NCBI GenBank assembly: GCA_964016885.1
Contig: CAXHJY010000554.1
Coordinates: 1-64,000, forward strand
DNA length: 64,000 nt
From: Eledone cirrhosa
Lineage: Eukaryota
Direction: 5' to 3'
Each line of letters begins with the position of its first letter. Within the stretch, counting starts at the first letter, position 1. Under the pieces are notes generated by a model. The model had not been told where the DNA came from and ran no database searches. It saw only the letters and a list, made by a program, of their open reading frames with translations. Position numbers and translations under genes: made by a program. Below, one piece after another: positions 27,423 through 59,964 of this stretch.

Positions 27423-27827
27423 ATGGAGCACAAACCATACAATGGGGTATGGATCCCTGTAACAGATGGTCACGATAAAGTAATGTATGAAGGATATATT
27501 TTCAATTATGAAAAAATGAGTAAAACTGATGAAGACACTCGCTTTTACTCGTGTTACAGAAAGAAATCGTTGCGTTGTAAAGCAAGATTGCACATTTGTA
27601 ACAACACAATAACAAAATTACATAAGAACCACAACCACACTGAGGATTCTTCGAACATTGATAAAAGTAATAAGTTCAGACTGGAAAGCGAGATGATACG
27701 AGCAACGGAATCACATTCGACAAGATTGTTACTTATCGCTAACAGCCTCAATTCAACAATATCTGTCCCAGAAAAACTGGCAATCACAAATTCTCCTGGA
27801 TGTATAAGACAAAGAAATATGAGCAAA
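27423..27827 (+). CDS. Coding exon 1: FLYWCH zinc-finger DNA-binding domain, phase-0 donor
   Basis: VMYEGYIF...RFYSC-x7-CKARL...HKNHNH fits the FLYWCH pattern (the W is replaced by Y); 135 codons end at AAA|GTAAGT (GT at 27828). Confidence 0.82.
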
Positions 27828-28203: not shown

Positions 28204-28350
28204 CAGGTATGGGTAACCCTTTTTTAGCAGTGAGTTGCATTAGATATGGTTCATCATAAGGTGAGCCGCACTACTAACAAAAATTAAGGGTAATTATTAA
28301 TAAGGCGTGCCATTCAGAAAACCAAACGGGCCGCAGTTTGCCCATGGTTG
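28204..28350. mobile_element. Short hAT-like MITE remnant
   Basis: CAGGTATGGGTAAC ... GGGCCGCAGTTTGCCCATGGTTG form imperfect terminal inverted repeats. Confidence 0.4.
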
Positions 28351-28677
28351 CAAATAGTGTATAGTTTTATTGTTTATTTTACATAAAAGATATTCCATAT
28401 CAAGAAGTGGAAAGTTATGGGACTGCCACTACGCTGACTACTACGTTCATACGACTGGATAGAGGCTATTTCTAAAAGTGTTTCCAGAAATCTCATTTAG
28501 ATCCAGAATCCTTCACGATAGACTCGTATACAATTAGTCCAAGCAACGTCAAAAATACGTTGATACATATCTTAGTGCTACCTATTACAAATAAATTAAA
28601 CAGTTTGTGAATTTTCTGTTGGGATAGCCACATAAAACCAGCAAAGTCAGGTAGCAGTGCATTTAAGTTCTTTTACT

Positions 28678-29242
28678 GTCAAGGGTGCGTATTGTCACCT
28701 CTCCTGTTCATAATCTTCATGAACAGTATTGACATGCACAGCTGACTGGAAGTGGTATCAAAACTGGTGGGTGTAGGATCAAACTCGCTAATTTCAATTT
28801 GGTGTTTGAGCTTATCCTCACCTATGGTCATGAATCTTGGGTAATGACTGAACGATTACAAGCAGCCAAATGGGGTTCCTCCAAAGGGTCTTTGGAGTAA
28901 TATTACTTGACAGGTTGCATAGCTTGGAGATCAAGGAGTCACTCCAGGTAGAGCTGCTATTTCTCTGAGTCGAGAGATCACAGTTCTAATACTATGAACA
29001 TGTGGTTAGAATGTCTCAGGAAAGAATTGCTGGGAAGATTTTACAGGCAAAGCCAACTGGTAGGACACTCAGTGATAGACCATGAGCAAGATATTTGGAT
29101 AACATCCATGAGCTTGGTTGGTCTCACTTGGGGATCCATCTGGATCAATTGGAGATAGTTGCTTCTGATAGGACATGCTGGAAGGCATGTCTGAGGATTC
29201 TGCCCCCACAAGACTTTTAGGAATAAGTGAACAAAAAAGAAT
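28678..29242 (+). mobile_element. Decayed 3' fragment of RTE family C
   Basis: QGCVLSPLLFIIFMN, LTYGHESW; 3' end similar to 26100-26510 and 37285-37435. Confidence 0.7.
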
Positions 29243-30317
29243 TGTTATATCCTAACTAGAACTTAGAAAAGCAGTTAATATCTTAACAAATAAAAGGGAT
29301 TTTGACACAGTGTAGTAAACTTACTAAAAGGGGTGTTGGGGTAAACAAAGAATTGGACAAGCCAATGTGGAATATTTAACTATCTTCCTCAAGAAGGATG
29401 CATGAAATGAAGGGGTTTTAGATACATTGTGCCCAAATAAAAGTGGTAATGTTTACAGTTAGAACATTTTTGATCATAGGTTTGCTCAACCAAAGACAGA
29501 CTTAAGAAAATTGTGGACAGAGGATGTATAATTATAAAATCTAGAAAGTTATTTCTATTTTTTAAAATTCAGAGCTTTTAATTGGCACCATATCATCTAG
29601 GTGCATAAGGTTGACAGAATAAGAATGTATTTGAGTTTGTTTGTCTCTCTCTGATATTATTAATAATGATTTAAGAATTAGGCACAAGGTCAACAATTTT
29701 TGGGGAGAGGAAAGTCAATTAAATCAACCTCAGTGCATTACTGGTACTTTATCTTATCAATCCCATAAGGATGAAAGCCAAAGCTAACCTAAGTGGGATT
29801 TGAACTCAAAGCATATTGTCAGATGCTCTATCAATACTGTCAATCCACTGTCCTAATAATAATAATAATAATAATAATAATATTTATATGGTGCCATAAA
29901 TCTATTACAATTTTAAAAGTTTCTTCACAATTCACGAGTTTCCATTGCTCCTGACAACCTCTTCTTGCTGTGATTGATGAATGTTCAAGCAGGTCTTTCT
30001 CTACTGCATCTCCTGTGAGTTGGTTCTCACAATAGTAACTTGTGTATAACTTCCTGCTTACTTCTCCAGCAATTTCTTGCAAATTGTAACTGTCTTTGAG
30101 CAATTGTAGTTGTTATCTTGGGCAGATTTCCATATAAATTTTCATTTGTAATAAGCATTAAATAAATAAATCATCTGTAAGGAGTGTATACAATATTTAC
30201 TTGCCTCCACAAATCAGGAACTACACCCATTATTATTTCCATCTACATATATACTATAAGAATACAATTATACTAATGTGTACTATTCACACTAGTATAT
30301 ATGAATGTACATATATA

Positions 30318-32062
30318 TCATCATCATCATTATACATCCTCTTTTCCATGCTTGCTTTCATTGGGCAGATTCTCTCCAGCATAACCGCCCTCGTACTTTT
30401 GTCATTTTTGTGAGGCTCAGTATCTTAAGATCAGCTTTAACCACCTCTGCCCAAGTCTTTCTAAGTCTTCCTCAATTGCAACTTCCTTCCACTGGCATCA
30501 CCTGGCACTTCGTCACCCAGTGTTCCTCATCTATATGTCCAAACCAGTGCTTCTCTCTTGCACACTATCTGATTCTTCTTATACCCAGCTTTTCTCTCAG
30601 TTCATCCATTCCTCATCATTCATGCACACTACTAACATTGCACATCCAATGAAGCATGTCACTTCATTTCTCTCCAGTCTCTGTATATCCTATGCATTTA
30701 TTGCTCATAAAGGAGAGAGGGAAGGACGACAGCTGTATAGACTTTTAATGTAATCTTGATACTGATGCCTTTCCTGTTCCATACTTTTTCCTTGAGTTTC
30801 CTTGAGTTTCCTTGGAGATCCTGTATTCTACTTCTTCGTCAATATTTGCTGTTTTAGAGAGAGTGCTACCTAGAAAAATGAATTTTCCAGTTTTTGTCCT
30901 TTTATGGTGAAGATGGATTCTTTGTAGAAGGTATCAGGTGAGAGTTGGTTCATCATTTTGGTTTTCTTGGTGCTTATAGTGAAACTAAAATCGTCACAGG
31001 CTTGAGAAAATAAATCCAAGCTTGCTTGCATAACACTTTCTGAGCTGACATAGAGGGCACAATTACTGGCAAACAAAATGTCTCAAGCTATGTCCTCCTC
31101 GGTATATGTCTTGTCCTTTAGTCTGTTCAGATTGAAGATGCCACCGCCATTAAATTTGTATGATACCTACACCTAGTGTTTCTGTAAGCATCAGAAAGCA
31201 TAGCAGAGAATACCATGCTGAAAAGCATAGGGGCTATAACACAGTCCTGTTTTACTCTGTTGGTAACTGGGAATGGTTCAGAAAACTCACCATCATCTTG
31301 TACACTTCCAATCATTCCTTCGTGTAACTGCCTGACTATTGAGATAAACTTATCTTGACACTCGGACTTGACCAAGCTATTCCAGAGACCTTTCATAGTG
31401 ACAATGTTTGACTTAGAATAAAAAAAGTCCATGGGTTCAATGGGCATCTGCAGAAAAAAACTCCTGTATCAACAGAATCAAAGATGTTTGCAGCACTGCA
31501 CTGTGGAACACATGCAGGAGACTGAATTAAGTGCACGAGCTGATGCAGTAATGCACCAGCTTCAGTAATCAGAAGAAGTGAGATAGGTGTAAAAGCCAAA
31601 CTCACTATCTTCAATTTGGTATTCGAGCCAATTCTTACCTATGGTCATGAATCTTGGGTATCAAGCGGCTGAAATGGAGTTCCTCCAAAGGGTCTTTGGA
31701 GTAATGTTACTCAATAGAGTTATCCAGGTTAAGCTGATACTTCTCCGAATTGAGATACTATGGGTATGTGGTTAGAATGTCTCAGGAAAGAATCGATGGA
31801 CAGCATTCTACACCATGAAACCCAGAAAGCTCCCAGACCTAACAATGTGCCCTTGGAATTCTTCTCACATGGTGGCCCTGAATTGAAGACCTTGTTAATG
31901 CTCCTGATACTGAAAATCTGGGAAGCTAATACTATCCCTGAGGATTTAAAAAAGGCCAACATTGTGACAATTTTCAAGAAAGGAGACCAATCATTCTGCA
32001 GAAACTCTCATAGCATCGCTGGCAAGATCTCCGCCCGAATCCTCTTGAATCGACTCCTCCCC
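30318..32062. mobile_element. Mosaic of decayed RTE fragments (family B 3' end minus, BovB-like RT minus and plus, family C plus)
   Basis: RVKQDCVIAPMLF and ISTKKT on minus; KAPRPNNVPLE..KISARILLNRL on plus; (CAT)n tail at 30318. Confidence 0.65.
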
Positions 32063-32787
32063 ATATATATATATATACAGAGAGAGAGAGATGTGAGTAT
32101 ATGTGTGTGTATTCAAAGCAAAAGCGTTTTTGTGGAGATGTGGAATGTTCTAGTTAACTGACTACTCAGTGATTTGACTTGACCACCTCCCTACTCACCA
32201 CCACCAGCACAGAGTTGGCTATCCACAGGTGTGAGCCTCGCGAGCTTGAATGGCTCTTCCAGCACGTCTCCCTCACCATCATCTGGGGGAACATCTCTAT
32301 TTTGTCCGCCGGGGTTGTAGGGAGGCCAGTGCGTGGACCCCCATTTGCTTGTAATAGTGAGAGATGGAGAGAGTGGGAGAGACGGAGGCAGTGACAGTGG
32401 GAGTTTGGTTCCATTGTGTTCAGACCTGGTGTATATGAATATATTTATTTACCACACCACATTAACAATAATTTCTCTGAAGACATAATCCAACGTTCTG
32501 ACTAGCTTAATGACGTCACTTGTTATATTTCTTGTAGTCAAGGTCCTGTTTGATGTAAACAGGATTTCATTGGATAGCTTATGATTGACGTCAATTGTTT
32601 TTATGAATCCTTGCTTTGAATGATAAACAGCCTTATTCATGTGCAAATAGAACGTTCAGGGTTTCGAATTCTGGGTTAAACCCATTACACACACACACAC
32701 ACATACATATATGTATGTGTGTGTATATATATATAGGTAAATTTACACAACTCCCTAATCGATTTCAGTGGGAAAAGAATTTCGTGA

Positions 32788-33171
32788 GCTATCAACTAAT
32801 CTAGCCACCAAGATTCTGTCAATCGACTTTTTCCCCGGAAAACGGAAACCCTGACCCTAATCAGGGGAAAAAAGTCTGTTGCGAGCATCTAAGAGGTTCA
32901 TAAAAAATTGAGGAAAGATAATTATTTCCCACCAAACGCGAGAGGCGTGTCGAGCTGCGAAACTCAGATGGTCCTTTCGCTCCCTTTCACCTCGCTTTTC
33001 CTACAAATCTAGTCGTTTCTGACTGGTTCGGAGATCCTATTCGTTGCCCCCCCCCCCCCCCCATCGTAATGAAAACCCTAAAGTGGGGGTCCGATGGGGG
33101 GGGGGCACCCCCTCCGTTCTCCAGGGAAAAAATCGATTGCTAGAATATTGGATGTTAGATTAGATGATAGC
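32788..33171. mobile_element. MITE-like element with ~60-bp imperfect terminal inverted repeats
   Basis: GCTATCAACTAATCTAGC..AATCGACTTTTTCCCCGGAAAACGGA versus TCCGTTCTCCAGGGAAAAAATCGATT..GTTAGATTAGATGATAGC. Confidence 0.65.
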
Positions 33172-33964
33172 ACAATATATGTGTGTGTGTGTTGAACTTC
33201 TTTCTTTTCTCTCTTTCACCCAAAGCGTGAACCTTATAACATTAATTGTATTTGTATCTGTGTTTGTCATTTCTTATTACACACACCCTTCTCTATATAA
33301 GTATATTCAAGTTATTTCCATTTTATTTTATCACTGTATATAAAAATATAATATAATATATTCAAAATACCTTTTATCGTAATATTGTTTTCAAGAATAT
33401 CAGTAAACGCATTTGGTTATATCTATTATAACTAGCTGATCCCGTGGCAATTCAAAGATTTAATTGAGTATTAAAGATCAATATGGCATTTTAAGTGTTT
33501 TCTTTACAAGTTACACACACACACACAAACAAACAAACTATTGTATACAGTGCTTCATTGCATGTAGGCATGGTCGCTAAATCCTTGTAGGAGTCGTAGG
33601 GGTGTCGTATATGTTTGTAGGGTATTTTCTTTCAAAACCTGGTGGAGCCCATCTCTCCATGTCTGTAGATCGCTGGACGAAATACCTTACGATTTTCATT
33701 TAGTTACAGCCTTTCGCGTTTGAAATCCCGCCAGATGTACTTTCTCTTTCGTACTTGCCGAGTTTATAAAATAAACACCAGTTTTACTATTGTAAAATTA
33801 TTATTATTATGAAATCATTATTTTTTATTGTTACCTTTCTCTTTACTATTGTCAAACCTGTTTACACGCACCCTACACGCCGACACACACATTCTGTTTT
33901 CATGTACCGTCCCAATGTTTTCTTAATGTAAACCCTTTGTGGTGAATAAGGAAATCATTATTAT

Positions 33965-34230
33965 TGGCAGAATCGATAGAGCGTCGGACACCATGCTCTG
34001 CGGCATAGAGTTTCGACTTTTTAACGTTCTGAGTTCAAATCCTGCGTAGGGAGCTTTGCTTTTCATCCTTATGGGGTCGATAAAATAAATTACCACATCC
34101 TGCGTAGGTGAGCTTTGCTTTTCATCCTTATGGGGTCGATAAAATAAATTACCAGCAACGCAGTGTCGATTTAATCGACTTTCCTGTCCCCATCTCCCAA
34201 ATGGTTGGCCTTGTGCCTAAATCGAAAATC
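33965..34230 (+). mobile_element. tRNA-derived SINE, second family (internal ~58-bp duplication here); further copies near 29680(-), 37710, 38300, 39920, 42290, 43960, 48670(-), 49990, 50220, 53450(-), 55000(-), 57405
   Basis: Shared core GAGTTCAAATCC..TTTGCYTTTCATCCTTAYGGGGTCGATAAAATAAAGTACCAG..GGCCTTGTGCCTAAA and (ATT)n tail. Confidence 0.8.
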
Positions 34231-35385
34231 ATTATCATCAGGTAAACATATTTTTGTTATATGGTTTCATGACGTCAGTTCAAGTTATGTGAAAGTCACG
34301 AGAAGGCAAAATACGCCATAATGATTTTATAACAAGCAATTAAAACCAAATTGTTGATTCTGAAAGTTGTACGGCGTAAGTTAAGGGAGATAAATAAATT
34401 GTTGCTAAGGAATTATTAGCACCTGGTAACAATCATCAGGTGGCAGCATGTGTTACCAAAACAAAAACGAAAAAATCTCAGACTGTTAGTTAAAGGGTGA
34501 ATGTAATTAAGGGCACTGTAATAATGTAATAAATGAAGGTAATTTGTTTATCAATAAAAACAAAGTAGATTATTTATATTTTTACATAGTATACTATAAA
34601 GTAGTTTCTGTTACATTTAATTTCATCTCATGGCTAAATTTCCGTAAGATTTTGATACGTGGAAGACTGCCATATTTTGACAAGCGTTGACACGCGATTG
34701 TGGGTTTGTTAGAGGAAAAAAATAAGTGGCCAGAGGAAATAGAGAAAGGACAAGTGGTGTTGTGTGTTACAGATCGGATTATTATTGTGCGCCGTTATGT
34801 GAGAGGTTTGGGGTTGATTTCAAGCAAAAGGGATTTCCTGCGATGTTTTTTCTTTTCTCTTTTTTTATTTGCAATTACTTCCTCACAAACAAGCTATACG
34901 TTTCACGCACACATCTCACGTTTTTGTGTATAATACTCCATTTACACTTGCGTGTGCGCGCGCCCACACACATACATACAAACACACACACATACACACA
35001 TATATACGCATTTCTTGGCCCCGCTTTCCTTCATATATAACCATATAACACCTGTACATTCTCTCTGTCACCAATACAATTCTCACCAGACGCCTACTCA
35101 CAAGACTTAACCATTGTATCTTACTCCCGCTCTCATTTACTCACATACGTCAATGTTAAATCTGGGCGGTATCGTTAGGAAATATAGAAAAGAAATTGTT
35201 TTATGAGAATTAAATTATATTTTATATTTTATGAAGAATAAATAGCTAATAAGGCGAACACTGAATAATTAATGAGACGGACTGGAGTTTTGCCCTCTTT
35301 TCTGTTTGTGTAGGTGGCTTCCACAGTATTTCTGAAGAGAAGTAGTTTTGGATCTATCGTAGAGATAAACAGATCGATCGAAACA

Positions 35386-35796
35386 ATGCCCCAACATTGC
35401 GTAGTTCGATTTTGTGATACCGTTCAGTCTTCGAGTTCAGAACCAGCCACTAGTTTACACCGCTTTCCAAAGGATCCCGTTCTAAGGTCCAAATGGATCA
35501 ATTTCGTGCAGACAGGGCGTAAAAACTGGACACCCAATGGCTCATCTGCCATATGTTCGCTTCATTTCACCAGCGAAGACTCACTAGGAGTTTTAATGAA
35601 GAAATTCGGATGCCGTACACGCATATTCTTGAAACAAGGAGCGATACCAACAATACAGTGCCCTAAAATGGCATTGTGTGCAGAGAAACCCACAGAGCAA
35701 AGACAGGATTTAGTCAGTGATAAAGCGATAAATGAAAATATAGCCCTGTCCGGCGGAAATCCATCAGTTCCAAAATTATCTAAAGGAAACTCTCTG
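35386..35796 (+). CDS. Coding exon: complete THAP zinc finger plus linker, phase-0 donor; an in-frame acceptor also lies at 35313/35314
   Basis: MPQHCVVRFC...LHRFPKDP..RSKW...ICSLHF...LKQGAIPTI is the canonical C2CH THAP with conserved P, W, F and an AVPTIF-like box; ends CTG|GTAAGT; upstream CCCTCTTTTCTGTTTGTGTAG|GTG. Confidence 0.9.
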
Positions 35797-36499
35797 GTAA
35801 GTTGATTGCGGTTGCTAAATATTAGTGTTTACATTAGATAACTACTAAAATACTTTTCAATGTTTAGTTACGTCACTTTATATACAGAGTTCAAATATTG
35901 CAGGGTCTAATTTGCCTTTAATCCTCCTCAAGTTGATATATGTACCAGTTGTTATAGTAGTAAATTACCGGTATCGATTCAGTCGACTCCTTATTTCATA
36001 AATATTTATGAAGTATTAATTTCATAATTCAGATAGACAATGAAGACGAGGTGACAATCGAGTAAATTCAGTAAAATTCTAGGATTAATTACCCGAAATT
36101 CTCTGCAAAAAGTTAACATAGTCTTTCGTTCTCCAGTATCAATAAAATACGTATCAATAATATATTGTAGTTAGTTTAATTGACTTTCTTCTGAAACAAC
36201 AATAGGCCCTTTATATTGTCAAAAGAAACCAGTATTTCACAGTTTCTTATTTTATACATTAGGGACCAGCTTAGCTTTTGCATCCTTCTAGGGACAACCA
36301 ATACGCAAGAGTAATTTGCTGGTTCGTCTCTGTTGAGAATTTACAGAGTTTCCATTAATTCGTGTGTGAATCTTTATCCTTAGAATTGAAGGATTTTAGA
36401 CAAAAATAATGATTTTTAAAAATATATTATTGTAATTGTTTTCTTCTTTTGGCGTACTTGCATCTAATAAAAAAAAATATTTTCATATGTAAACCCCCA

Positions 36500-37437
36500 G
36501 TCACTCATGCAGCACCCTACATCAAACCTATCGAATGCAAGTCGGAGATCAACCTTCTGTTGAGTTAAATAATACCATGTCTGCAAAATCCAGCTGACTG
36601 ATTTTACACCCGCCAGTCGTGATACCACTTCCAACCTGGCTGCGCATGTTAATCTTGTTCATGTAAATAATGAACAGGAGATGTGACAATGGTTTCAGGT
36701 TAGCACCATTTATCTCAACACAAATACTCGGGCTCTCATATAGAGACATCAGGGCAGCAAGAAGCTGACTATCGAACCCATACTCCTGCAGAACCTTCCA
36801 CAGCAGGTCCTAAGGAACGCAGTCATATGCCTTTTCAAGGTTGACAAAACAAGAATATACTTCTTGACAATACTCCCATGATTTCTCGAAGACCTGCTGC
36901 AGTGTGAATATTTGGTCGGCTGTGCTGCATCCAGGCTGAACACCACACTGTTCATCAACTAGCTTGGACTCAACAATCTCCCTGCATCTCTTTGTATAGA
37001 CTTTACTGGGGAGTCTTAACAAGTCAAAATTGGAATTACCACTCACGATTGCCATTGCTTAGGTACCTTTCCACACTCAGCATACACAAGTCAGCCAGAG
37101 AATACCTTCTCTATTTAAGGATTTTAACATCTCGGGTCGGATTTCATCTTCCCCAGTGGCCTTACCACATTTGAGTTCTTTAACTGCTCTTGTGATCTCA
37201 GCCTCTTTGATTAGTCATCGCTCTCAGATGCACCGCATGTACATCAGAAGATGCTGTTGTGATCGGGTTTAGGAGAGCAGCAAGTTGGTTGGATAACATC
37301 CATGAGCTTGGCTGGTCTCACTTGTGGATCCATCCGGATCAGTTAGAGACAGTTGCTTCTGACAGCACCCATTGGAAGGAGTGTTTCAGGACTCTGCTCC
37401 ACCACCCTCTCAGGAATAAGTGGCTGAAGAAGAAATC
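36500..37437. mobile_element. RTE family C copy with inverted 5' part (minus to ~37280) and short plus-strand 3' end
   Basis: Minus: QCGVQPGCSTADQIFTLQQVFEKSWEY..FVNLEKAYDCVP..LDFAD; plus: DNIHELGWSHL...CAGGAATAAGTGGCTGAAGAAG. Confidence 0.75.
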
Positions 37438-39272
37438 CCTAGTCCCTGGCTCTTGTATTGTTTATAATGTTTTGGGCCCTAGTGGCCAATAAAATTATTA
37501 TTATTAGTAGTAGTAGTCATATTTTCATTGCGTGTTGTCACTGCATTACCGAGCACAGCCTTGTGCGTCTTGGGTACGTACAGTGTTGTTTCCATTGCAT
37601 TGAAAGAACTCTTCATAATGTTTGTGCAAAATGTACCAGTGCTATTTTCTGTACGTAGTGTATATTTTACTCCTGGGGTTTTGATTATGTATTTGTCTTA
37701 TTATTATGGTGAATTGGCAATATCGGTAGAGGGTCAGACACCATGCTTCACAGCATAGAGTTAGGTCTCTATCCAATCTCAGTCCAAATCCTGCAAAGGT
37801 TAGCTTTGTCTTTCATTCTTATGGGGTCGATAAAATAAAGTACCAGTAATGCACTGGGTCGATTTAATCGACTTTCCCCTCTCCCCAAAATTGTTAACGT
37901 TGTGCCTAAATCAGAAATCATTATCATTATTATTATGGTGGAAAGAGAAGTGCTGTCCCCCAGTACATTTGCTAAAAGGTCGGTGAATGTGGCGAGAATG
38001 GGCCTACTCTGAGCATGCGCCTGTAGGCTGGTTGATTTGAGGAGGTGCCCTTCCTGGGTGTTCTTGAAGCATTGGGTATTTCAGGATTAGTGGGGTACCT
38101 GAATCACCCCTGGGAATTATGGGGAATTATGTTTGTATTTTTATTGCTTATTATTATTGCTGTATTTATTTTTTTTACTATTTCTACCCCCACCCCACTG
38201 TCCGTCGTTTTGTATTGTCCCCTATATGTAGGCTCTTGTGGCAAATACAGAAAAAAATTATTAAGTATTGGAGAAAAATACATGCAGTGTTTGTTCTGAA
38301 TTCAATTACTGCCATGGTCAGCATTACTTTTCATACTCTGAGGTCGATAAAATAGAGTACCAATAAAGCACTGGGGTTGTTTTAATCGATCACCTCCCCT
38401 CATCAAATTTCTGGATTTGTGCCTGTGTTAAAAACGATTATTATTATTGTTATTTCTTTTGTGATCATTATCAATTACTTGGATCAGGAGAAAGTGAGTG
38501 GGTAGTTGTTTTCAGCTACATGCATGGAGGTTGTCATAAAAGTGCCTTATTTGCAGTAAGAAATGTATGCTTTGTACACACACACACACACACATTTATC
38601 TTGGTGTTGCATTTATAAGAAGTGTAATTCAGCAAGCCTTCCAGCACTAAGAGCCTTAAGCCCCTCCAATAATGTGGAAACTTGTTCAATGATCTTGGTT
38701 TTTACAACACAGATTTTCTACTGACTCTAAATGTTAGTATGATCATGTTTTTAATTTCTTTTGTAGTCTTGTATTGGTGATAAAAAAAAGTATGAGCTAA
38801 TAATGATAATACACATGTACAGTATATATAGTTAAGGCCCTCCCCAATCCCAAAACTGTATCAGAAGCTCTGTTTGGATTAGGTGCAGACAGCTCACTTT
38901 TAAGGTATGAAATTAATTTAGGTGCTGTAATTGTAGTATGTATGCAGTGCTAGTCAGTCCTATTTTTAAAAAATTTTCTGAACAGATGATTCACCTGGGA
39001 TATTGCTAGATGTTTCTCACAACCTTTTCTTATCATACCTGGTGAGTGGTACTGTTATTGTTTGAATATTTCACGTATTTTCAATCTCTATTCCTAGGTT
39101 TTGGTATTTGCTTGGTATTTGAATACACAGATCAGTTAATTTGCAGATTTTATCTTTCCTGTCTGTGATGATGATAATATCTGGCATGATCACTAGAACT
39201 GTGCAGTTTGTGCTAAAATCCGAAAGTACCCTTACATTATGTTATTGGTTCTTGGCTGTTTTTATTTTCTAG

Positions 39273-39341
39273 TTGCATAGTGAAAATCAGAAAAGAAGCA
39301 CAGCAAATCTTCATCTGCCTAGTAGCTATGGCAAAACAACT
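39273..39341 (+). CDS. Possible internal exon (LHSENQKRSTANLHLPSSYGKTT)
   Basis: Strong acceptor TTTTTATTTTCTAG|TTG opening a phase-0 frame; donor uncertain (ACT|GTATGG at 39342, phase 0, or AAG|GTTTGA at 39364, phase 1). Confidence 0.3.
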
Positions 39342-41788
39342 GTATGGTGGACATGTCTAAAAGGTTTGAAGAGAAAAATCTTCCTCTCCAGCCATGCCCT
39401 CACCAACTTCAAGTATTCCTTGAAGAGGAAGATGCTGCCTTCTAGTGTGTTTTATAAAAGATGAGTGACAGGAAGGGTATCCAGCCATAGAAATCTTGCC
39501 AAAGGGTTGGGAGGATCCCTTCAGTTGTGTCAAAGACATGGCAGCCTACCCTGCGCACTCGGGATAACATGAGACCGTACATAAGCAAGATGACAGATCC
39601 CTAGCTTGTCTGGGAGATCATTAGCCCCGCTTCTATACTTTGGCAGAAATGAACATTTATAGAAATAGTAAACTATGTTATTGAAAGAAACAGCTTTTCC
39701 AAGAAACAAAATACAAATATTTGTCTTTGACCTGTGAGACATTGTATGTTTATGAAAAAATATTTCAAATATTGGGCCTGCATAATAAAAAATGAAGGCT
39801 ATTATAATCATGAACACTTGGATAATGCTATTTTAGTTGTAAGAATTCAAAATACACCAATGAATGAATAGGCCCTCAAATGGACCAGTAACCAGTCATA
39901 TTATTACTGATTAATGAAGGGCGGAATTAGTAAAGGACCGGACAAATGCCTCAGAGTATTTAGCTACGTTTCTTCATGTTCTAAGTTCAAATCTTGCTAT
40001 GCCTTTCATTCTTCCAAAGTTGATAAAATAAGTAACAATCAAGTATTGTGGTTGTTGTAACTATTTGGAAGACCCCGTTTAAGGGTGAAGGCAGGAATTG
40101 TTTGCTTAAACGTTTAATCTGTGCTAATAAATAAATATTGTCTAAGCACCTGAAGATTAGGTCATAATTTTGATCCCTATGACAATCTGGAGATGTGGTC
40201 AATATTGGGCCTTGTGTTCAGTGTATAAACATAAGTAATTAATATATATCAGACCTCATTCCTGATTGAGCAGTTTTCCTTTTTCAGACCTATGAGTATT
40301 TTCTACACACACACACACACATATATATATATAGACCTGCCTTCCCATGTGCACGGGTTGAAGCATATATCTTGTATGCACTGCTTTCCCCTTCCCACAC
40401 TGTAAAGTGATCTTGTAGGTGCCACGGTAAAAAAGCACCCAGCTCACACTGTAAATGTGGTTGGTGTTAGGAAGGGCATCCAGCTGTAGAAACCAAGTCA
40501 AAACCAGTCCTGTATGAACAAATCATGGTCATCAGATCGGGCTTGTCTCACAATGGGGTAACTCATCTAACCCATGCTAGCATGGAAAATACACATTTAA
40601 CGGTGATGATGATGATTATTTATTGAACATTGTGAGTCAACAAATTCTTAAAAATGGGCATAGATGTCCACATATTCAAAGGTTAGAGAATTATGGTTTG
40701 TTTCTTGTTCAGCTGGTTTGTATATGTCTTATATTTGTTTGTGTATGTCTTATATATATAGATCTTCGTTTTGTATTCACACCCTACTTACACACAGAAA
40801 TATTTAGTTGTACAAACAGGAGAAACACAGTTTAACCCTTTAAACCAGCCATATCCGGCCAGAATTCTCTCACCTCTTTCTATTCAAACCGGCTGTAACT
40901 GGCCATTCATACTGATGTTAAGGTATTGTTCTCAAAATAAATAATAACAAAATCTCATAGATCCGATATTATGTGAGGTAAAGCCTTTACCATGAAAATA
41001 CAACAGTAAATATAGAGTAATGTAAATGCTAAAGTCTTAATAAAGTGCTCTTAGGCATGAAATTCATGACCCTTGGGTCACTTGTCTGGTACAGTTTCAC
41101 AGCAATTATAATTATACATATATAGATAGTTAATGGTGAAATGCAAAGCAGTGACAAAATATTCAATGCCATAGGAGAGTACAATAAAATTTATTCAACC
41201 CTGAGTTTTTGTGAATTGCCACTCGAAGTTTCTTGGTATATGCAAGTATAAAGCTTTAACGCATATGCCCTGTAAGTGCAGGAATATATAGAATTGATGC
41301 TGAAAAGTTAACGCTTCTTTGGTAATTACATATTTAAAATTCAGCAATAACCTTCGCTTCACTATCAGGTAAATATTTTGTAACTAAAAATTGTATATTT
41401 GAATCAGGGGGAAAATTGTTTTATTTATTAAGATGAATTAATTATCTCCCTTGAACTGCGAAGCTAAAGCAAGAGACTTAATTTACTACTAAACTGTTGG
41501 GAATGCTTTCATTTCTATAAAAGTACAACTAAATCATATCATTGAAAAGAGAAAAACAATTGGACAAACACTATAAAATAATTTCTCCCTAGTATATGAT
41601 ATATTTAATAGCTTATCTCGTTCAAAGTAATAATGTCAAGTTTATCTTCCGTTGATGCTAGCTTGGTTTCAACTTCTTTTTCTTTCAGCAACTGACTCAC
41701 TCAGTTGATTATGCTTGTTTTCATATCTAGTAAGAATTAGAATATATTTTATAGTATAATATATCATGTAATTTTTTTTTCCTTGTAG

Positions 41789-41828
41789 CTGAAAACTCAG
41801 AATCAACTAAATGAAGAATTTGATATTG
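41789..41828 (+). CDS. 40-nt internal microexon, phase 0 in and phase 1 out (LKTQNQLNEEFDI-G)
   Basis: Acceptor TTTTTTTTTCCTTGTAG| and donor TTG|GTAAGT; open in frame 0. Confidence 0.7.
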
Positions 41829-42539
41829 GTAAGTCTGATGTTTCAATATTCCCATCTTTTTATTTTTTAAAATTTGTAATATATATCTTCTGATGAAGGA
41901 CTAGCATTTGAAACGTTAAGGCTCTTTTCCTTCTATATCAAGCATAAAACTAATAATATATTTCTTCATTGTACTATGTCATTTGCTTTGTTATTTCTGT
42001 TTGCCCTTTGCATACATATATAGGTGTGTGTGTGGGGCTGTGTATGTAGTTGATGGCTGAGAGTTTTATCTGCGATAATAAGCAGGCGAAACTCCAGTAT
42101 AGCAAGACTCACTATTTATCCTTAATAAAATGAATATATATATAAACTGCTCTGGCAGAGAATGTGTTGTAGCAATTTACATAGCTATCAAATTTAACAT
42201 TTTTTAATAACAAATGGTGTTGCTTCTTGTTTTCAGCAGGTTATTAAATATTCATATATGAATAAATGCTCCAGATACAAGCTTGGCAAAGAATTAAGGC
42301 AGTGTTGGATAAATACTTTGCATTTTGAATTCAAATTCCATTGAGGTCAACTTTGCCGTTTATCCTTCAGGGGTAGATAAAATAAAGTACCAGTCAACTA
42401 CTGATTATCGTTTTACACCCCACCCACCCTTTCCCAATAAAGTTCTTGCTTTGTGCCTGTTGTATCAATGGCAGTCTGCTGTTTTAGTTAAGCTACTTTT
42501 TTGTAGAATGTTTTTTTTTATCATAACCACTATTATGTA

Positions 42540-42735
42540 CAAGGGTCGGCTGAAAAGTTCATAGGCTGACCAAGATACTCATGTAACGACCAAGTGAGGT
42601 TTATTTCTCGACATTGTCCCTGGAAAGAAACAATTCAGTTATTAATAAGAAGAGTTGAAATTAACGCATGCAAGATTTCACAGCTTTAGCATCAATCCTT
42701 CATAGTCAGCCTATGAACTTTTCAGCCAACCCTTG
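42540..42735. mobile_element. Mariner-type MITE with TA target duplication; second copy at ~43102-43274
   Basis: TA|CAAGGGTCGGCTGAAAAGTTCATAGGCTGAC ... GTCAGCCTATGAACTTTTCAGCCAACCCTTG|TA. Confidence 0.85.
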
Positions 42736-43540
42736 TATATTGTTATTTACAATGATTCATTGCCAAACTAGATGCCTCACATTTCTACATTCAGGCCTTG
42801 CTAGGACATTTTTAACCTTTTGACTCTGATGAAATAAGTACTAGTTTTATATTCAGGTTGATTAGATTAAAGGACTGTCCTTCTTTTTCAATATTCAAGA
42901 CTTTGTAACTAATGTTGAACAAATATTTTTCCCTTATATAATTATTATTCAGTAAAAGAGGAAAGTCGGGGAATGCTTGTGAGTGGGAAGAGAGTGCAGA
43001 AAGTATGACCAAATACACAATAACAAAAATTAAAATGAGTTGGTAACTAAGATTTTTAATTGGCAAATATGAAAGAAAAATTTAGATATTTCATCCTTAT
43101 ATGAGTGTCGGCAGAAAAGTTCATAGGCTGACCAAATAAGACTTATTTTTCAACATAGTCCCTAGAAAGAAACAATGCAGTTATTAAGAAGGAATGAAAT
43201 TAGTGCATGCAAGATTTCACAGCACAAACATCATTTCTTCATAGTCATCCTATGAACTTTTCAGTCAAACCTTGTATAATTTCACAATATTTGTTGAACT
43301 GTGTTAACAACCAAAACTGAACCAAATAGAGTATACAGAATTATATTTTTATTTGGCATGGGGAAAGGGAATTGTTTAAAAATTAAAGAAATATTAGATG
43401 TAATCTACATGATAAATAATATTTATATAGGCCAAAACATTTTTAATGGAATATTTAAAAAGTTGAAGCAAGATCAAATATAAATTAAAAAGCTGAAGTA
43501 AGATAAAATACAAATTAAAAAGCTGAAGTAAGATAAAATA

Positions 43541-44586
43541 CAGGGTAACCAGGCAGTCAATACATTTTTATTGCAATGTTCACAGATAACTTTTTGAACA
43601 TCTGCTTTAAAATATATAGAGGAACAGAGGTCAGATTTTCAAACATTTACTTTAATTATATTTTTTAAACTACTTTTGATGTATGTATAATTTCGTAATG
43701 CATGACCAGAATTTAGTAAATATCATCACTAGGAATATAAATATTGAACTGTCCGGTTACGTATGACTCACCCTATATAACAATTAAAAAGGAAAATGAT
43801 GAGAGTTAATGGTTTGGTGAATTGTATGGGTCACTTTGAGATGGATTATTTGATGCCAAGAAATAGTTATGGAAGATCAGAATCAATTATGAGATTGACA
43901 ACAGCAACAGCTGTTTGTATTTAAAAGTAGTAGTAGTGATGTTAGTAGCTATTGACGCATAGAGTTACGGCCCTTGCCATTCTGAGTTCAAATCCTGTCG
44001 AGGTTAACTTTGCCTTTCATCCTTACGGGGTCGATAAAATAAAGTACCAGTAATGCACTGGGTAATTGATGGCATTGTGCCAAAAGTAGAAACAATTATT
44101 ATTGTAAAAATCAGCAGTGAGACCATTTAATTGTTGCCTCTGTCAATAAATTTACCTCAAATAAGGTTTGTAGCTGCACTCATACAAGATTGATTGTGTT
44201 GATTTTTGATAATTGATTGAATCATCGTTGCGATGTATTTGATACTTATTTCATTAAAAGTCAGCTTGTAAAAGGTAAACAATTAGTGTATTTAATTATA
44301 AACCAATAATTCAAACAATGGAATATATTTTATGTTGTGAGGACTAAAAGTCCATCGTTTTGGACATATCCCAACATTGGAGATTGAATAAAATCATGTT
44401 TTCATGCTAACAAATGGTGTATTTATTTACAATTTTTACAAATGCTCAATATGTAAATAACTTTATAAACATTTTAAAAAGTTATAAAAAATGAATCAAC
44501 TTTATATTTAGACATGTATCGGACAAGTTACCGCATGATTATATGGTCATTTGTTTAAAAAATATAGCCGTTTTGATTACACCCTG
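43541..44586. mobile_element. Possible decayed Tc1/mariner-type element containing a SINE insertion
   Basis: TA|CAGGGT ... ACCCTG|TA termini with weak subterminal complementarity. Confidence 0.4.
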
Positions 44587-44591
44587 TATAT

Positions 44592-44913
44592 CAGAGGTTC
44601 TCAAACTTTTTGCCCCCCCCCCCCCCCCCCCCCCCAAATAACGGCCACGTAATACTATCAGTGCCCCACCCATATTTCCAGAGAGACCTGCCTACACGCA
44701 AATTGTAAATAATATATAAATAAAATCGTTAATTTATATATAATATAATATACACTATGTATAAACATTATATATTTTTTATTTTACTATATTTATATAT
44801 ATGTATCATTTGATATTTAATATACTATTATATAATCTCTACCGCCAGCAACCCCATGGACCTTCTCAACACATCCGGGGGCGGGATGGGATAGCGCCCA
44901 ATTTGAGAACCTG
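44592..44913. mobile_element. hAT-type MITE with 8-bp TSD
   Basis: CAGAGGTTCTCAAA ... TTTGAGAACCTG flanked by CTGTATAT on both sides (44584-44591, 44914-44921). Confidence 0.75.
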
Positions 44914-45384
44914 CTGTATATCAAAGTGACCACCAGTAGATGTTAAAATGTACCAAGTATATAATTACCGTTTATAGCAAGGTCAAATTATAAACTACCC
45001 CCCAATTTTAAAAATTATTTTAAATAATCACCTGCACTGTTCCACTCTTATTCCACTCCCAGTTGAGTGGTTGCCAATAGGAAGGACATCCAAATGAATA
45101 TAAAACTGTAAAAGAAAGTAAAATAAAAGTGATATCTTTCGTTTGGCACCTCCCACTCCCTTAAGATTGACAAAAATGTCACCTACTGGAATAAACTATA
45201 AATGTATGCAAGGTTTTAATATACTACTTAAGTTGTTTTCGGCAGAGATTTTTGTTGGGTCCAATTTAATTCTGATAGAAACTGATTTTGTTAGAATTAA
45301 ATTAAGCAACGTGACAACGAAACATTAATGAGAAGATACGAGAGTTATCGAGTTTTTAAACCATTCAAACAGCTTTTATCAACA

Positions 45385-45426
45385 GACCAATGAGAAACGG
45401 GTAGACGGTAGAAGGCGGTGGTCTAC
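45385..45426 (+). promoter_or_regulatory. Putative promoter block: CCAAT plus GTAGAC..GTCTAC inverted pair, shared with 55157-55188
   Basis: GACCAATGAGAAACGGGTAGACGG..GGTGGTCTACA versus GACCAATCAGAAGCAGGTAGACGGTGGTCTACA. Confidence 0.55.
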
Positions 45427-45567
45427 ATGGGATTGTGTCTTTATTATATATTTTTTGCTAGCATTTTGATAGCCTCTGCTACGTGACAAAATTCCGTGCT
45501 AGAACTCCAACTGGCCTTCTTTTTCTATTCTGAGGCTCGCTAGTTCCTTTCTTTATTGTTCGCCACA

Positions 45568-45808
45568 ATGCCGGCTAACTGTATAGTGAAAGGCTGTCGC
45601 TCCATTCAGAAGAAAGGCGGGCCGATTAGCTTCTACCGACTACCATGGAAAAATGTCCGTTTAAGAAACGAGTGGATACGACGAGCTGGTTATGATCCGA
45701 ATAACTACGAGGAAGTGAAGCATATAAGTCGTGACCATCGAGTATGCAGCAGGCATTTCTGGAACAACCGCAAGGAAAGTCCTTATGATCTCCCGACGTT
45801 TTATCTGG
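45568..45808 (+). CDS. Coding exon 1: compact THAP domain (paralogue a), phase-1 donor
   Basis: MPANCIVKGC...ISFYRLPW...RNEWIRR...RVCSRHF...DLPTFY; homology with 55313 stops just after CTGG|GTAAA. Confidence 0.85.
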
Positions 45809-47144
45809 GTAAAAAAACAAATCTATTAAAATTTAGTTTTCTTTCTTTTGCTTTTAAATATATATATCAAAAATATATATATAATTTTCACTCTGAACTC
45901 CTTGATTCTCTTCCCTTTTCTTTTACCTCTTTTGTGATATATAATGGAAATAGTTGAGTGGCTTAATACATACACACATACTACTAAAACGAATATTGTG
46001 TATTTGTCGGTGGCCTGAAATTTCTACCTCAATTTCATTGGTTGATGAAGCTAAGTTGTCGTGACGTCATGTGACGTGGGGAGGGGGGGGGGCACTTCCC
46101 AGTGTTATGATCAAAGTAAATAATTGAAAAAGTTGCATTACATCATACATCAGTAATAGTGCATGGCACACACATTATTTGTTTACAAACTTATATATAC
46201 ATATATATATATAAAGCACAAGTAAACACTTAATACTCATACGATAACACATTTGTGTGTGTGTGTGTATATATATAAGTATCAGTATACAGTTTTAATC
46301 CTCATACGATAACACATTTGTGTATGTATATATATAGATATCGCTATAGGTAATGAGTCCTAGATTTATAACAATTTAGAGGAAGGATTTCAATAAATTT
46401 ATAATTTAAGATACGATACATACGGCATAGTAGGTTAAATTAAATTCCCATGCTACGTATTGTATGCAGATTAAAAATGTTTAATTAAACATGAAGTTTT
46501 AGTCTGAAAAGTTATATTATCAACAATTCGTCTCAAACACATAGCTAGTGAAATGTTATATATGAGTATTGTTGTTTATATAATAATATATTATCGCATG
46601 TACTCTGTATTATAACATTTGATCGAGCAATGCTTTGCATGATGTCCAGAGAAAAATATTGTCTAAGACTTAGTTTAAGACTACATTCTTTAAAGTTTAC
46701 CCAATGTTTCTCTATCTCAGAGATCTTTAGTTCCAACATCTCTCGTTTATTTTCCCATGTCTATCCATCCATCTCTCTATCATGTTATGAGTGTGTGACT
46801 CTCTAAAAATGTAAATTATTCCATCCTTGATGAAAATGTTTAAATGAAATACATTTGTACTTACATTATGGGGGAGGAGGGAGTCACCAGGTGTCCGCAG
46901 GTTAGGAAATGAAGAATTAATAGCATTTAAAAGTTATTTTATTTAATTAATTTTTTTATAGAATGTTTAAGAAATTTATCTTGGGTTGTAACCATAGTAA
47001 GATCAACTAATCTTTAAAAAATTTTCTTCCAACAATATTGAAGTGGAAACGAGTTATCTTCGATTTATTCAGCATCATAGGTGGCGCTGAAAACGGTTTA
47101 GATAACTCTGTAATCAACAAAGGCAGACTCCGGTGTTTATTATC

Positions 47145-47388
47145 ATGGGTCGTGCGCGAAAATCGTTCAGTGCTAAACAGAAGTTAAAAGTGATAGCTTT
47201 TGCCGAGATTTATGGAAACCGAGCTGCTGGTCGTCAATTCAGTGTCGATGAGAAATCGGTCAGAGAATGGCGGAAGCAGAAAGATCGGCTGGAGAACATG
47301 CCGAAAATAAATGTAGCTGATAGTAACAAGCGACCAAAAGAATGGCTGTGGGCTATGCAGAAATGCGGTTTATACATACCGAAATACG
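47145..47388 (+). CDS. Coding exon 1: Brinker/pogo-type (POGK-like) helix-turn-helix DNA-binding domain, probable phase-1 donor
   Basis: RKSFSAKQKLKVIAFAEIYGNRAAGRQFSVDEKSVREWRKQKDRL fits BrkDBD; the donor TACG|GTACTT is only moderate, so the 3' end is uncertain. Confidence 0.78.
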
Positions 47389-52700: not shown

Positions 52701-53667
52701 TCACCTTTATATTTAGGTATATTGGAATTTCGTTTGATATATTATACAATATTTGGGAATATTGGTATATATATATATGATATATACACAATGTACACTA
52801 TAGTTAGGTATATTGCTATTTTATTTGATCGATACACAATGTACACTATTCTTTCTCAGTTTTGATTCCTCCTCTGGGGAGCCATCATAGATAGGATATG
52901 ATTTGATGGAATTTGGCTGCTATATAGAGGGGTTTGCATGGGCTTGATGTATCTGGTGTTTAAGAACATGGAGACTCTTTGTTTTGAAGTCATTTAATGT
53001 CCTACATTCATCTAGTGGAGAATCATGATGAAAGCATGGCTGTCTTGGCATATTGCTATCCAGATTTTTCTAGTGATTACGAGGTAAACTTAGTTGGAGC
53101 GTGATAATTGCGGTCCCTCTGCAATTGCTATTGATGCTGTGACACTCACTACACTCTTTTAGGCCTATGAACTTATTGGTGCTTCTAAATTTGTTCCCAA
53201 ATGATGGATCTAATATATTGTTTCTAGATTTGTGTTGACCAATCATTTTATAGGCTAGTCAGGACAATGTCCATAACTTTTGCAGTATGTCATAAGACTA
53301 ATGAAATCGATATAATTGATGTTACGGTTGGGAAAAGCCTGTGTGTGACCTAAGTATGTTTGCACATAATTTTGTTTTGGCTGTCTTCTGCGTCCAGGTT
53401 CGTATCATTGTGGTAGCGATGTTTGAGTATTTTTTCTCACAATGATAATGGTTTCTGATTTAGGCACAAGGCCAACAATTTTGTGGAGGAGGGAAAAATC
53501 GATACCAGTACGTTACTGGTACTTTATTTCTCACTATACTAATAATAGAAACAGCAATTGTTATACTGCCTTCTTGTCTTTATATTGTTGAGCGTGGTGA
53601 TCGCTATTATCTGATGTTGCTGATAAGAAAGATATTGGAATGGATAGGTGCTACTATTAGTCTAATG

Positions 53668-53999
53668 CAGCATTTCTCAACTTTTTTACCCGTGTGGAAC
53701 CCTTAAAATAGTTTTCATGTCTCAGGGAACTCCCGCATAAAAATTACTATATACCATTATTAATATCTATCTATTTTATATTTTTATCGTAGTTCACGTG
53801 CTAAACATAATATATTTATAATATAAGAGGTTGAAGCTTTATTATATATAATAACCAAGGGTTTTCCAACAATATGCCATACTTGTATAGTAAAATTACG
53901 AGTATACAATTAAACAAAATTACTCAAAAATGCATTAGCTTATTTATCAGTATCTCGCGGAACCATAGGATTCCGGTGAACACCGGTTGTGAAACACTG
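53668..53999. mobile_element. hAT-like MITE
   Basis: CAGCATTTCTCAAC ... GTTGTGAAACACTG with degenerate 8-bp flanks GTCTAATG/GTCTAGTT. Confidence 0.55.
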
Positions 54000-55312
54000 G
54001 TCTAGTTAAGAGAGTTGTTTGTAGCAGCTCTCTCTGGAAATAATGAGATGTGAATATCATGTGTAATAAAAGTTAAAAAGTGTAAGAGGGTGTGTCCTTG
54101 TGCAACACTGTTAGGTAAATTGCAAATTCTAGACGAAACATTATTGTATTCTACATCATAAGATTCCGATCCTATACCTACGTTGTTGCAAAATGAATTT
54201 TAAAGGGAAAAAATCCTTTGAATTAATCTTAAGATCTAACAAAGATTTTTATTTTATTTTATAGATAACCGAACAATCGATATTTTATTGTTAGTGTATT
54301 ATTTTATCAACTCTAATTTATGGAGCCGGCTGGATTATCCAGAAATGATGGAAAGAGACCAGACGGTCTTACCTTTTATCTTTGTGAAAAAGATAGGCGT
54401 CTCATCTGAGACTTAACAGTCAGTGACTCTTTTGCACCCTCCCATGTCATGGACGCCGCGGTAAATGTGAGGGCTTCCGTTACCGAACGGAATAAAATTC
54501 GGAAATATCTGGATTTATCTAATAACTATTTTTCGAGACGTTTGGTGGAGTTGGGTCGCTAACAGCGAAGTTCTTATCGCTGGCGGCTTGCCTTACTGGG
54601 GTGTTAGAGTGCCTGGTTGTTTCAGCGCCTTAGCCTAGCTATTACCAGTAGTGATGTTGTGAGTGTGTTAGCTTGCCTCAAGATGTTCCGTTGATCCTTA
54701 TGATGTGCGGCCGATTGTCGCACTTGGTGGCGAATTGTTGGTCGTTTTTGCTCCCTCCCCGCTTTCTTTCGCCCTGGTCGTGTTTTGGTGCGTTGTTTTT
54801 GTGAGGTTCCTGGCGATGGCTGGTTGTATTTGTTATATGCGTTTATATGTGTATCAACATTATATTTGTAATGTTATGTGTACAACTGTGAATAACGTTT
54901 TATATTTCCAATTGTGAAAGAAACGAAGAAAAACAAAACAAAAAATATGCAAACATTGATGAATTGTAAATATACTTCTATAATAAATTGTTTTTACTTT
55001 TGGCACAAGGCCAGCAATTATATCAGTGTATTACTGGTGCCTAATTTTATCGACCCCTTAAGGATGAAAGGCAAAGTTAACCTCGGCGAGATTTGAACTC
55101 GGACCATAAAGGGCCATAACTATGCTGCAAAAGCCGTTTAAATAGTTCTGTCAACCGACCAATCAGAAGCAGGTAGACGGTGGTCTACACGATAATATAT
55201 CTTTAGGGTATTTTCTTTTTTGCTGGTACTGGGACCATCTTAAATTTGATAAATTCCCATGCAGGTCCACCGTTCTGCATTACTTTTCATTTGATTCTGA
55301 AGCTTGCTATAA

Positions 55313-55553
55313 ATGCCAACCAAGTGCATTGTGAAAGGCTGTCGTTCCCTTCAGAAGAAAGGTGGGCCGATTAGCTTCTACCGACTACCATGGAAAAATA
55401 TACATTTAAGAAATGAGTGGATACGACGAGCTGGATATGACCCAAATAATTATGAAGAAGTGAAGCATATAAGTCGTGACCATCGGGTGTGCAGCAGGCA
55501 TTTCTGGAACAACCGCAAGGAAAGTCCTTATGATCTCCCAACGATTTACCTGG
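55313..55553 (+). CDS. Coding exon 1: compact THAP domain (paralogue b), phase-1 donor
   Basis: 74/80 aa identical to the 45568 exon by manual alignment; same length (241 nt); ends CTGG|GTAAAG. Confidence 0.85.
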
Positions 55554-58072: not shown

Positions 58073-58304
58073 ATGGGTTTTAAACGAATGAAATATACTT
58101 CAAAATTTAAACTACAAGTCGTGATGCTGGCTTTGAAAACCAATAATTCGGAAGCTGGGAGACAATTTAGTGTTAATGAAAAACTTGTTCGGGACTGGAG
58201 GAAAAAGGAAGCTGAACTTCGGAATATGCCACCCACAAAATGTTCTAATCGCGGTAAGAAAAATACTGACAAAATCAATATACCATGTGTTAATTTTTTT
58301 ACAG
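58073..58304 (+). CDS. Coding exon 1: Brinker/pogo-type HTH DNA-binding domain, phase-1 donor (alternative phase-1 donor after 58253)
   Basis: RMKYTSKFKLQVVMLALKTNNSEAGRQFSVNEKLVRDWRKKEAEL fits BrkDBD; donors GCG|GTAAGA (58254) and CAG|GTGAGT (58305). Confidence 0.83.
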
Positions 58305-59893: not shown

Positions 59894-59964
59894 ATGGTGA
59901 ACTTCTGTGCCGTGTTTGGCTGTAACAGTAAACACAAGACTGGGAGCGGCATTTCCTTCCACAG
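59894..59964 (+). CDS. Coding exon 1: N-terminal half of a THAP domain, phase-2 donor (absent from the ORF track)
   Basis: MVNFCAVFGCNSKHKTGSGISFH(R) ending CAG|GTAAGA; M-x3-C-x4-C...SFHR start typical of THAP; GCCATATTG motif at 59860. Confidence 0.82.

Follow-up and report, generated by a model that had tools for sequence, protein, structure and literature searches.

Organization of the locus

The window analyzed here, a stretch of 64,000 nucleotides of Eledone cirrhosa DNA, contains seven cassettes and a 40-nt exon (exon A, 41789..41828), all on the plus strand, which is the strand of the gene that they serve. The first is a FLYWCH cassette, an alternative first exon whose coding part (27423..27827, 405 nt) ends at a phase-0 GTAAGT donor and which enters the shared exon chain at exon A. 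It matches Pfam PF04500 (E 1.6e-12), and 115 of its 135 amino acids are identical to the Octopus bimaculoides model P0005, which continues into exon A; a search among representative sequences gave 83 matches, one of them close (P0082). The first THAP cassette (35314..35796, acceptor at 35314, ATG at 35386) also has a phase-0 GTAAGT donor and entry A. The 411 nt from its ATG match PF05485 (E 1.8e-17), and its orthologue P0001 runs into exon A. Upstream of this cassette lies a likely short leader exon (34517..34564, plus strand, bounds approximate), whose peptide scores 48 of 83 against the 16-aa leader of P0003 and P0056. In the O. bimaculoides models the leader is followed by the THAP exon in P0003 and by exon A, with nothing between, in P0056; its start codon is absent in E. 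cirrhosa.

Five cassettes lie downstream of exon A. A THAP first exon (45568..45808, 241 nt, phase-1 donor, entry B) is recognized by Pfam and has 79 of 80 residues identical to P0064, which joins exon B; an orthologous cDNA gives the same junction and a collinear 5′ end. It is followed by a Brinker-type helix-turn-helix cassette (47145..47388, 244 nt, phase-1 donor, entry B; Pfam BrkDBD), with 67 of 81 residues identical to P0061, again joined to exon B. The THAP cassette at 55313..55553 (241 nt, phase-1 donor, entry B) is a tandem paralogue of that at 45568, with 89% nucleotide identity to 45567-45830; it shares 79 of 80 residues with P0057, which joins exon B, and its junction is also found in an orthologous cDNA. 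The second Brinker-type cassette (58073..58304; BrkDBD, E 1.5e-11) measures 181 or 232 nt, depending on the donor. Its donors at 58253 and 58304 are both strong, in frame and of phase 1, 51 nt apart, and two linker lengths are possible. Entry of this cassette at exon B is probable from its position and phase; a matching isoform was found neither among the 15 listed members of the 32-member orthologue cluster nor in Table 1 of Mukherjee and Moroz (2023; PMC10027918). The last element is the first exon of a two-exon THAP cassette (59894..59964, 71 nt, phase-2 donor, entry B), with 22 of 23 residues identical to P0053, which joins exon B, and the same form occurs in Argonauta P0009. Its second exon was not found within the window and is placed beyond its end.

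Pfam confirms all six cassettes tested (FLYWCH, three THAP and two BrkDBD); a seventh query, the open reading frame at 59591, matched no family. The initial annotation gave phase 0 to the donors of the FLYWCH and first THAP cassettes and phase 1 to the others that it counted, and all were correct on recount. The cassette heads are old and appear single-copy-like in the sequencing runs, with a depth of 8-24 in the exon bins. The order THAP-then-Brinker occurs twice (45568-47388 and 55313-58304); the two Brinker heads share 45% protein identity and the spacers cannot be aligned. The arrangement points to a unit of two heads that was duplicated in tandem long ago, or else to homogenized THAP exons.

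RTE-like reverse-transcriptase copies and (TA)n occupy the region 1-27400. Its part from 2700 to 22600 has several RTE-type LINE copies that are nearly identical, interleaved with long (TA)n arrays; open frames of 300-900 codons occur in some of the copies. The CENP-B/Tc5 head, which in O. bimaculoides lies ~0.9 kb upstream of FLYWCH, and the THAP-Psq heads, which lie farther upstream there, were unmatched in 1-27400 (best E 0.07), and these upstream heads may have been lost or displaced in the E. cirrhosa window. In Argonauta, the first THAP of model P0002 is preceded by another head, of Brinker-Tc5 type.

The 40-nt exon

Exon A leads from phase 0 to phase 1. Its acceptor has pyrimidines at 13 of the 15 positions before the TAG, its donor reads TTG/GTAAGT, and frame 0 is its sole open frame, with one base left over. 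The initial annotation had described an exon of 40 nt with strong splice sites that is open from phase 0 to phase 1, and this was borne out when the coordinates and the sites were re-read. A scan of 27828-64000 (~36 kb) by a simple in-house consensus rule gave 42 acceptors and 17 donors on the plus strand and 24 acceptors and 23 donors on the minus strand; exactly one acceptor–donor pair at a distance of 15-120 nt was found on the two strands, and it is exon A. Its peptide of 13 residues has no domain of its own. Ten of these residues are identical in the corresponding exon of O. bimaculoides LOC106877732, and the changes are conservative. This orthologue, LKTQNQINEEYDV, directly follows the end of the THAP cassette, and exon A is its best match in a six-frame comparison with the window, with a score of 60 of 67 against 28 for the runner-up. 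Six different upstream exons share exon A in the O. bimaculoides models, and it is present in all nine records that start upstream of it. Positions 41011-41915 are covered by three runs of one sample with zero differing letters, the sample being probably that of the assembly itself and not independent.

The neural microexon programme uses exons of 3-27 nt that keep the frame and are alternatively included. By the criterion for such microexons (at most 27 nt and a multiple of three) exon A is not one of them, since it has 40 nt and shifts the phase. An optional route to exon A through the acceptor at 39273, as the initial annotation allowed, is not supported: a matching insert occurs in none of the nine exon-A records. 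No strong donor follows 39273 and the DNA there is CpG-poor (observed/expected, o/e, 0.14). On its own exon A is a modest linker; it is valuable because it reveals how the gene is built.

Junctions in the orthologous gene

The first THAP cassette used as a query led to isoform X6 of O. bimaculoides LOC106877732, a protein with THAP and BTB. When the constant part was searched and the protein clusters were consulted, orthologues in O. sinensis, O. vulgaris and Argonauta were found, together with isoform numbers as high as X36; 15 of the largest cluster's 32 members were listed. Junctions were read from predicted gene models of these relatives (RefSeq XP_ and derived records), not from E. cirrhosa reads. 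NCBI alternative isoforms are built from transcript alignments. The proposed joining of the FLYWCH and THAP cassettes to the 40-nt exon is found in O. bimaculoides P0005, P0069 and P0001, which run into exon A with nothing between. It had also been proposed that donor 41828 uses the same downstream acceptor as the phase-1 cassettes, and that six of the seven cassettes can reach one phase-1 acceptor. The common acceptor is seen for the orthologues of 45568 (P0064), 47145 (P0061) and 55313 (P0057), and six of the seven cassettes are matched when 59894 is included through its own second exon, but the cassette at 58073 is unmatched.

In the orthologue proteins exon A continues into G-DTQNVQISKQTHRFST, which is exon B. 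For two cDNAs listed in Table 1 of PMC10027918, the last cassette base G is joined to an exon starting with GT, that is, in phase 1. In E. cirrhosa, run X4 (kind unrecorded) contains a 368-nt contig of depth 3.6 that matches 27530-27827 and stops at donor 27827. It has 70 letters left over, the number expected from exon A (40 nt) and an overlap of 30 nt. Three DNA-like runs of one sample read straight through donor 27827, and none of the 15 joints listed for the run contigs, with 2961 more beyond the listing, connects 27827 with 41789; contig alignment on 26100-46000 is dominated by repeats. We take the X4 contig as a weak hint of splicing in E. cirrhosa.

Shared chain, entry points and phase

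Read from the orthologue proteins, the shared chain consists of exon A (40 nt, phase 0 to 1), exon B (50 nt, phase 1 to 0), exon C (32 codons, phase 0 to 0) and exon D, followed by a glutamine-rich stretch and then by a BTB domain, which begins 214 residues into the constant chain. There are four entry points, A, B, C (HFVGG...) and D (AGPSN...). The 32 Octopus records contain 24 different last variable exons, with six entering at A, five at B, eight at C and five at D (assignments curated by hand, with the Argonauta record and the fused model P0067 excluded), and Table 1 of PMC10027918 holds three further heads beyond these. By Pfam (33 proteins scanned) the head families are THAP, FLYWCH, BrkDBD, CENP-B_N with HTH_Tnp_Tc5, HTH_psq and DUF3504, three octopus heads being DUF3504-like. 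In the same scan the A-entry exons P0056 and P0059 are domain-less leaders and P0011 had no DNA-binding match. Judged by family, the cassettes are probably mostly DNA-binding domains of transposon type.

All 13 cassettes with scaffold coordinates in Table 1 of PMC10027918 (15 rows minus one duplicate and one neighbouring gene; five for A, two for B, four for C and two for D) lie in the order A, B, C, D on one strand over ~180 kb, an order whose chance is ~2e-6 by hand arithmetic. A six-frame peptide search did not find exons B, C and D within the 64-kb window, and we infer their places in E. cirrhosa.

At A, C and D the phase is 0, as unspliced models (P0004, P0082, P0071-73, P0078, P0068, P0081 and P0198) run on with Val directly after the last cassette residue. 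Phase 1 is thereby confined to the A-B intron, and the donor of every head has the phase of its own intron. Because donor phase equals the phase of the host intron, phase 0 is found in the cassettes upstream of A, and phase 1 in the group that lies between A and B. The claim in the initial annotation that the 40-nt exon brings the cassettes to a common phase 1 holds locally: exon B returns to phase 0, and most cassettes of the locus are of phase 0 and enter farther down the chain.

CpG islands and putative promoters

From what is generally known of invertebrate methylation, CpG-rich islands can be read as unmethylated promoters within a methylated gene body. The CpG o/e is 0.82-1.21 at all seven cassette starts, whereas 27 background windows have a median of 0.29 and a maximum of 1.01 (p 1.3e-6); it is 1.21 for the FLYWCH cassette, 1.03 for the first THAP cassette and 0.48 for exon A. 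The cDNA 5′ ends of three orthologues resemble, by eye, the DNA directly upstream of the ATGs in the window. Based on the CpG islands and these 5′ ends, each cassette likely has its own promoter. A candidate shared promoter motif, GCCATNTT, presumably YY1-like, has 10 sites, of which five lie within 720 nt upstream of four of the seven cassettes (raw counts). The regions 32000-34500 and 53500-55000 are also CpG-rich with no coding cassette found in them; first exons that do not code, or promoters that serve other transcripts, may lie there.

Split THAP heads and age of the array

Several C-entry heads end at CSK or CTK. In the alignment, exon C provides the missing His of the C2CH site, along with a PDPLP stretch whose counterpart in whole THAP domains lies at their end; such half-THAP fingers (P0054, P0055, P0058 and P0197) would be complete only after splicing to exon C, which would bring the fourth zinc ligand. 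An AlphaFold2 model of a half-THAP with exon C (P0198, alignment of 16 sequences) has a mean pLDDT of 41.5, a low-confidence fold, so that the split-THAP reading rests on the alignment. The invariant P, W, C and H positions of the THAP heads are kept in 16 of 16 aligned sequences.

The identity of cassettes between octopods is 67-99%. The cuttlefish model P0197 contains two adjacent half-THAP cassettes, in which 66/66 and 54/59 residues agree with octopus; exons C and D and the BTB come after them. Since the cuttlefish has the same heads together with C, D and BTB, the array predates the octopod-decapod split, which took place ~270 million years ago. A BTB profile search beyond cephalopods gave 35 matches among 8000 scored candidates and every named one is from a cephalopod, a result that says little on range.

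The BTB domain

The model of the BTB homodimer scored 0.83, against 0.00 for the best control, with at least 90% of contacts in agreement between runs and a pLDDT of 86-87. Among solved pairs 21 of 30 reached the mark for a dimer, among single chains 0 of 23; in eukaryotes the figures are 17 of 29 pairs and 0 of 30 single chains, though only one of seven where no older solved relative exists. As the mark is so rarely reached without an older solved relative, the pass of our BTB may reflect a memory of BTB dimers. The domain is predicted to form a homodimer, so isoforms could pair. The only PDB match at E ≤ 0.01 is 6n34 (NS1A-binding protein, Kelch-type; E 1.1e-4), and an Atlas search returned generic BTB clusters only.

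Discussion

We consider it very probable that the 40-nt exon is the first shared exon of a coleoid BTB gene, in which many alternative first exons are joined to one BTB body to give a panel of factors. In the mechanism that we propose, transcription would start at one cassette, as the CpG islands and collinear cDNA 5′ ends suggest, and the donor of this cassette would be joined to the next shared exon downstream while the other first exons, which as such would need no acceptor, are skipped. The chosen head would thereby be attached by cis-splicing to the constant glutamine-rich and BTB body. The product would be a transcription or chromatin factor, predicted to be sequence-specific, whose targets differ by head and whose effector part is common, and isoforms are predicted to pair through their identical BTB domains, combining two specificities. 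The cassettes likely came by transposase capture and tandem duplication.

A further-reaching and tentative proposal, which we hold possible but rather doubtful, is that coleoids independently built, in one gene with several smaller paralogues, a switchboard of captured transposase DNA-binding heads of many superfamilies as promoter-bearing first exons, with cell-by-cell choice, some THAP fingers built by splicing and BTB pairing, which diversifies cell or neuron identity or polices transposons, so that much of the octopus THAP/CENP-B/Psq expansion is one locus. The 24 heads would allow 300 possible pairs.

The assumption that the heads bind DNA can be questioned. Their main function might instead be to bind proteins and so bring the BTB body to other factors, as the variable ends of Mod(mdg4), FLYWCH included, are described to mediate protein contacts (in the accessible text of PMC5666082), and DUF3504 heads are described without demonstrated DNA binding (in that of PMC3212892). 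However, the THAP residues P, W, C and H, which are invariant in all the aligned sequences, and the Brinker, CENP-B/Tc5 and Psq heads, which exceed the cut-offs of DNA-binding families, argue for sequence-specific binding, and we regard protein recruitment as the main role as unlikely.

A second alternative is that exon A was gained and kept mainly to convert the phase-0 cassettes, that is, as a purpose-built phase adaptor. Exon A does convert phase 0 to phase 1, all the upstream cassettes of the window are of phase 0, and 13 residues without a domain would suit such a role. Yet exons A and B together measure 90 nt, so that a phase-0 cassette spliced to exon C with both of them omitted would keep its frame; moreover, 19 of the 24 variable ends enter at phase-0 points, and the peptide of exon A is itself conserved, with conservative changes only. 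Since exon B returns the frame to 0 and most cassettes enter downstream, exon A is better seen as the first link of the chain, and we give the adaptor only a small chance.

Considerably less probable is that heads and body are joined by trans-splicing between separate transcripts. The idea draws on mod(mdg4), the nearest functional analogue, which is trans-spliced (according to the accessible parts of PMC4667647 and PMC5666082), and on the length of the array, ~180 kb. Against it, every cassette that could be placed (7/7 in the window and 13/13 mapped) is on the strand of the gene, upstream of its entry exon and in entry order; strand, position and order are needed by cis-splicing and not by trans-splicing. 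That the isoforms are annotation chimeras, put together in silico or by rare read-through from cassettes that are small genes of their own or remnants of decaying transposons, is hardly credible: the junction evidence does come from predicted models, and P0067, P0002 and the N-terminus of P0197 are plainly fused or unspliced, but each frame runs up to a canonical donor in the phase that its entry exon requires, the tiers are ordered, octopods share 67-99% identity and one cassette is 100% identical in cuttlefish, half-THAP heads lack the last zinc ligand unless spliced, and the junctions in cDNAs are exact to the base.

The preferred reading, one BTB body served by many first exons, can be compared with known systems. 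In the mod(mdg4) gene, as far as the accessible texts describe it, one locus gives 30 or more isoforms with a constant BTB and glutamine-rich part and variable DNA-binding-type domains, including FLYWCH (PMC5666082, PMC4667647). Like mod(mdg4) and lola, the octopus gene pairs one BTB with many DNA-binding-type domains (24 ends in 32 records of gene models, six families). Unlike in these genes, where the BTB is constant and N-terminal and the 3′ exons vary, the octopus variable part is 5′ and N-terminal and the BTB lies in the constant 3′ part; the heads come from at least six unrelated families, with four entry points, and are collinear on one strand. The BTB of mod(mdg4) and lola belongs to the ttk group; the only solved BTB matched by that of octopus at E ≤ 0.01 is of Kelch type, from which homology to the ttk group is not indicated. 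The octopus layout is compatible with plain cis-splicing; mod(mdg4) is trans-spliced in the sources cited.

Clustered protocadherins and UGT1A have tandem paralogous first exons with their own promoters and one entry to the common constant exons, and their promoters are chosen cell-specifically or stochastically. The octopus gene resembles them in its tandem first exons with likely own promoters (CpG islands at 7/7) that are spliced to constant exons (in models, for 6/7), but its variable exons are unrelated DNA-binding domains of a nuclear factor, of six families and with four entries, and in one case variable and constant exons each encode part of the same domain.

Host-transposase fusions such as KRABINER are described as separate fusions, mostly with KRAB, and the accessible text of that preprint has no mention of BTB (bioRxiv 10.1101/2020.05.07.082677). 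In the octopus gene, as in such fusions, heads of THAP, Tc5/CENP-B, Psq, Brinker-type, FLYWCH and DUF3504 are carried on exons apart from the host domain and, in the models, joined to it by splicing; unlike the fusions as that text describes them, one gene holds many heads, placed upstream as first exons. A closer case is isoform b of vertebrate KCTD1, in which, according to the accessible text of PMC3212892, a Crypton-derived DUF3504 exon was inserted upstream of a BTB gene and gave a longer isoform. As described there, KCTD1b is a single capture, while the octopus locus is an array. Both KCTD1b and the host-transposase fusions are single-capture versions of the step proposed for the octopus locus.

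Octopus 'THAP-BTB', 'CENPB-BTB' and 'Psq-BTB' were named as separate genes (Thap1-13, Psq1-2) by Mukherjee and Moroz (2023; PMC10027918), whose paper calls BTB a transposon source and uses the word 'isoform' zero times in its main text. In its Table 1 the exon-D peptide appears 17 times and LOC106877732 11 times; these are the same proteins. A main-text search for the locus and accession numbers returned 0 papers, and we found no description of the variable/constant design in the literature searched, which is thin on subscription papers and leaves supplements that may mention it. The isoform sequences are already in public annotation and the design itself seems undescribed.

Variable-plus-constant exon arrays are rare devices for protein diversity, and we know of a BTB version only from insects. 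If our reading is true, the coleoid gene would be a mirror-image BTB array older than the octopus-cuttlefish split, a clear convergence with insects, and the densest transposase capture in one gene among the cases found. The expansions of transcription factors in cephalopods would in this part count as isoforms and not as genes, and the switchable heads would add, next to protocadherins and C2H2 genes, a source of cell-type diversity that can be tested. The array would also put the phase rule of exon shuffling to a natural test, where a new head survives only if its donor fits its intron.

Paralogous BTB genes with alternative N-termini are LOC106872008, LOC106872000/LOC115209549 and LOC106877745. 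By scaffold numbering a cluster of BTB paralogues (LOC106877737-745) follows the locus and LOC106872000/008 form a second group; several of these paralogues (P0014-P0052) have alternative N-termini, among them FLYWCH, CENP-B, THAP, ZSWIM3-N and STPR repeats. The THAP head that comes first among those of entry A has a copy in P0030. Short contigs encode BTB proteins of more distant kinship, whose heads are DUF3504 or Brinker and Tc5 (P0040, P0041 and P0170), P0040 clustering with a cuttlefish protein, which suggests further loci of such a design in decapods.
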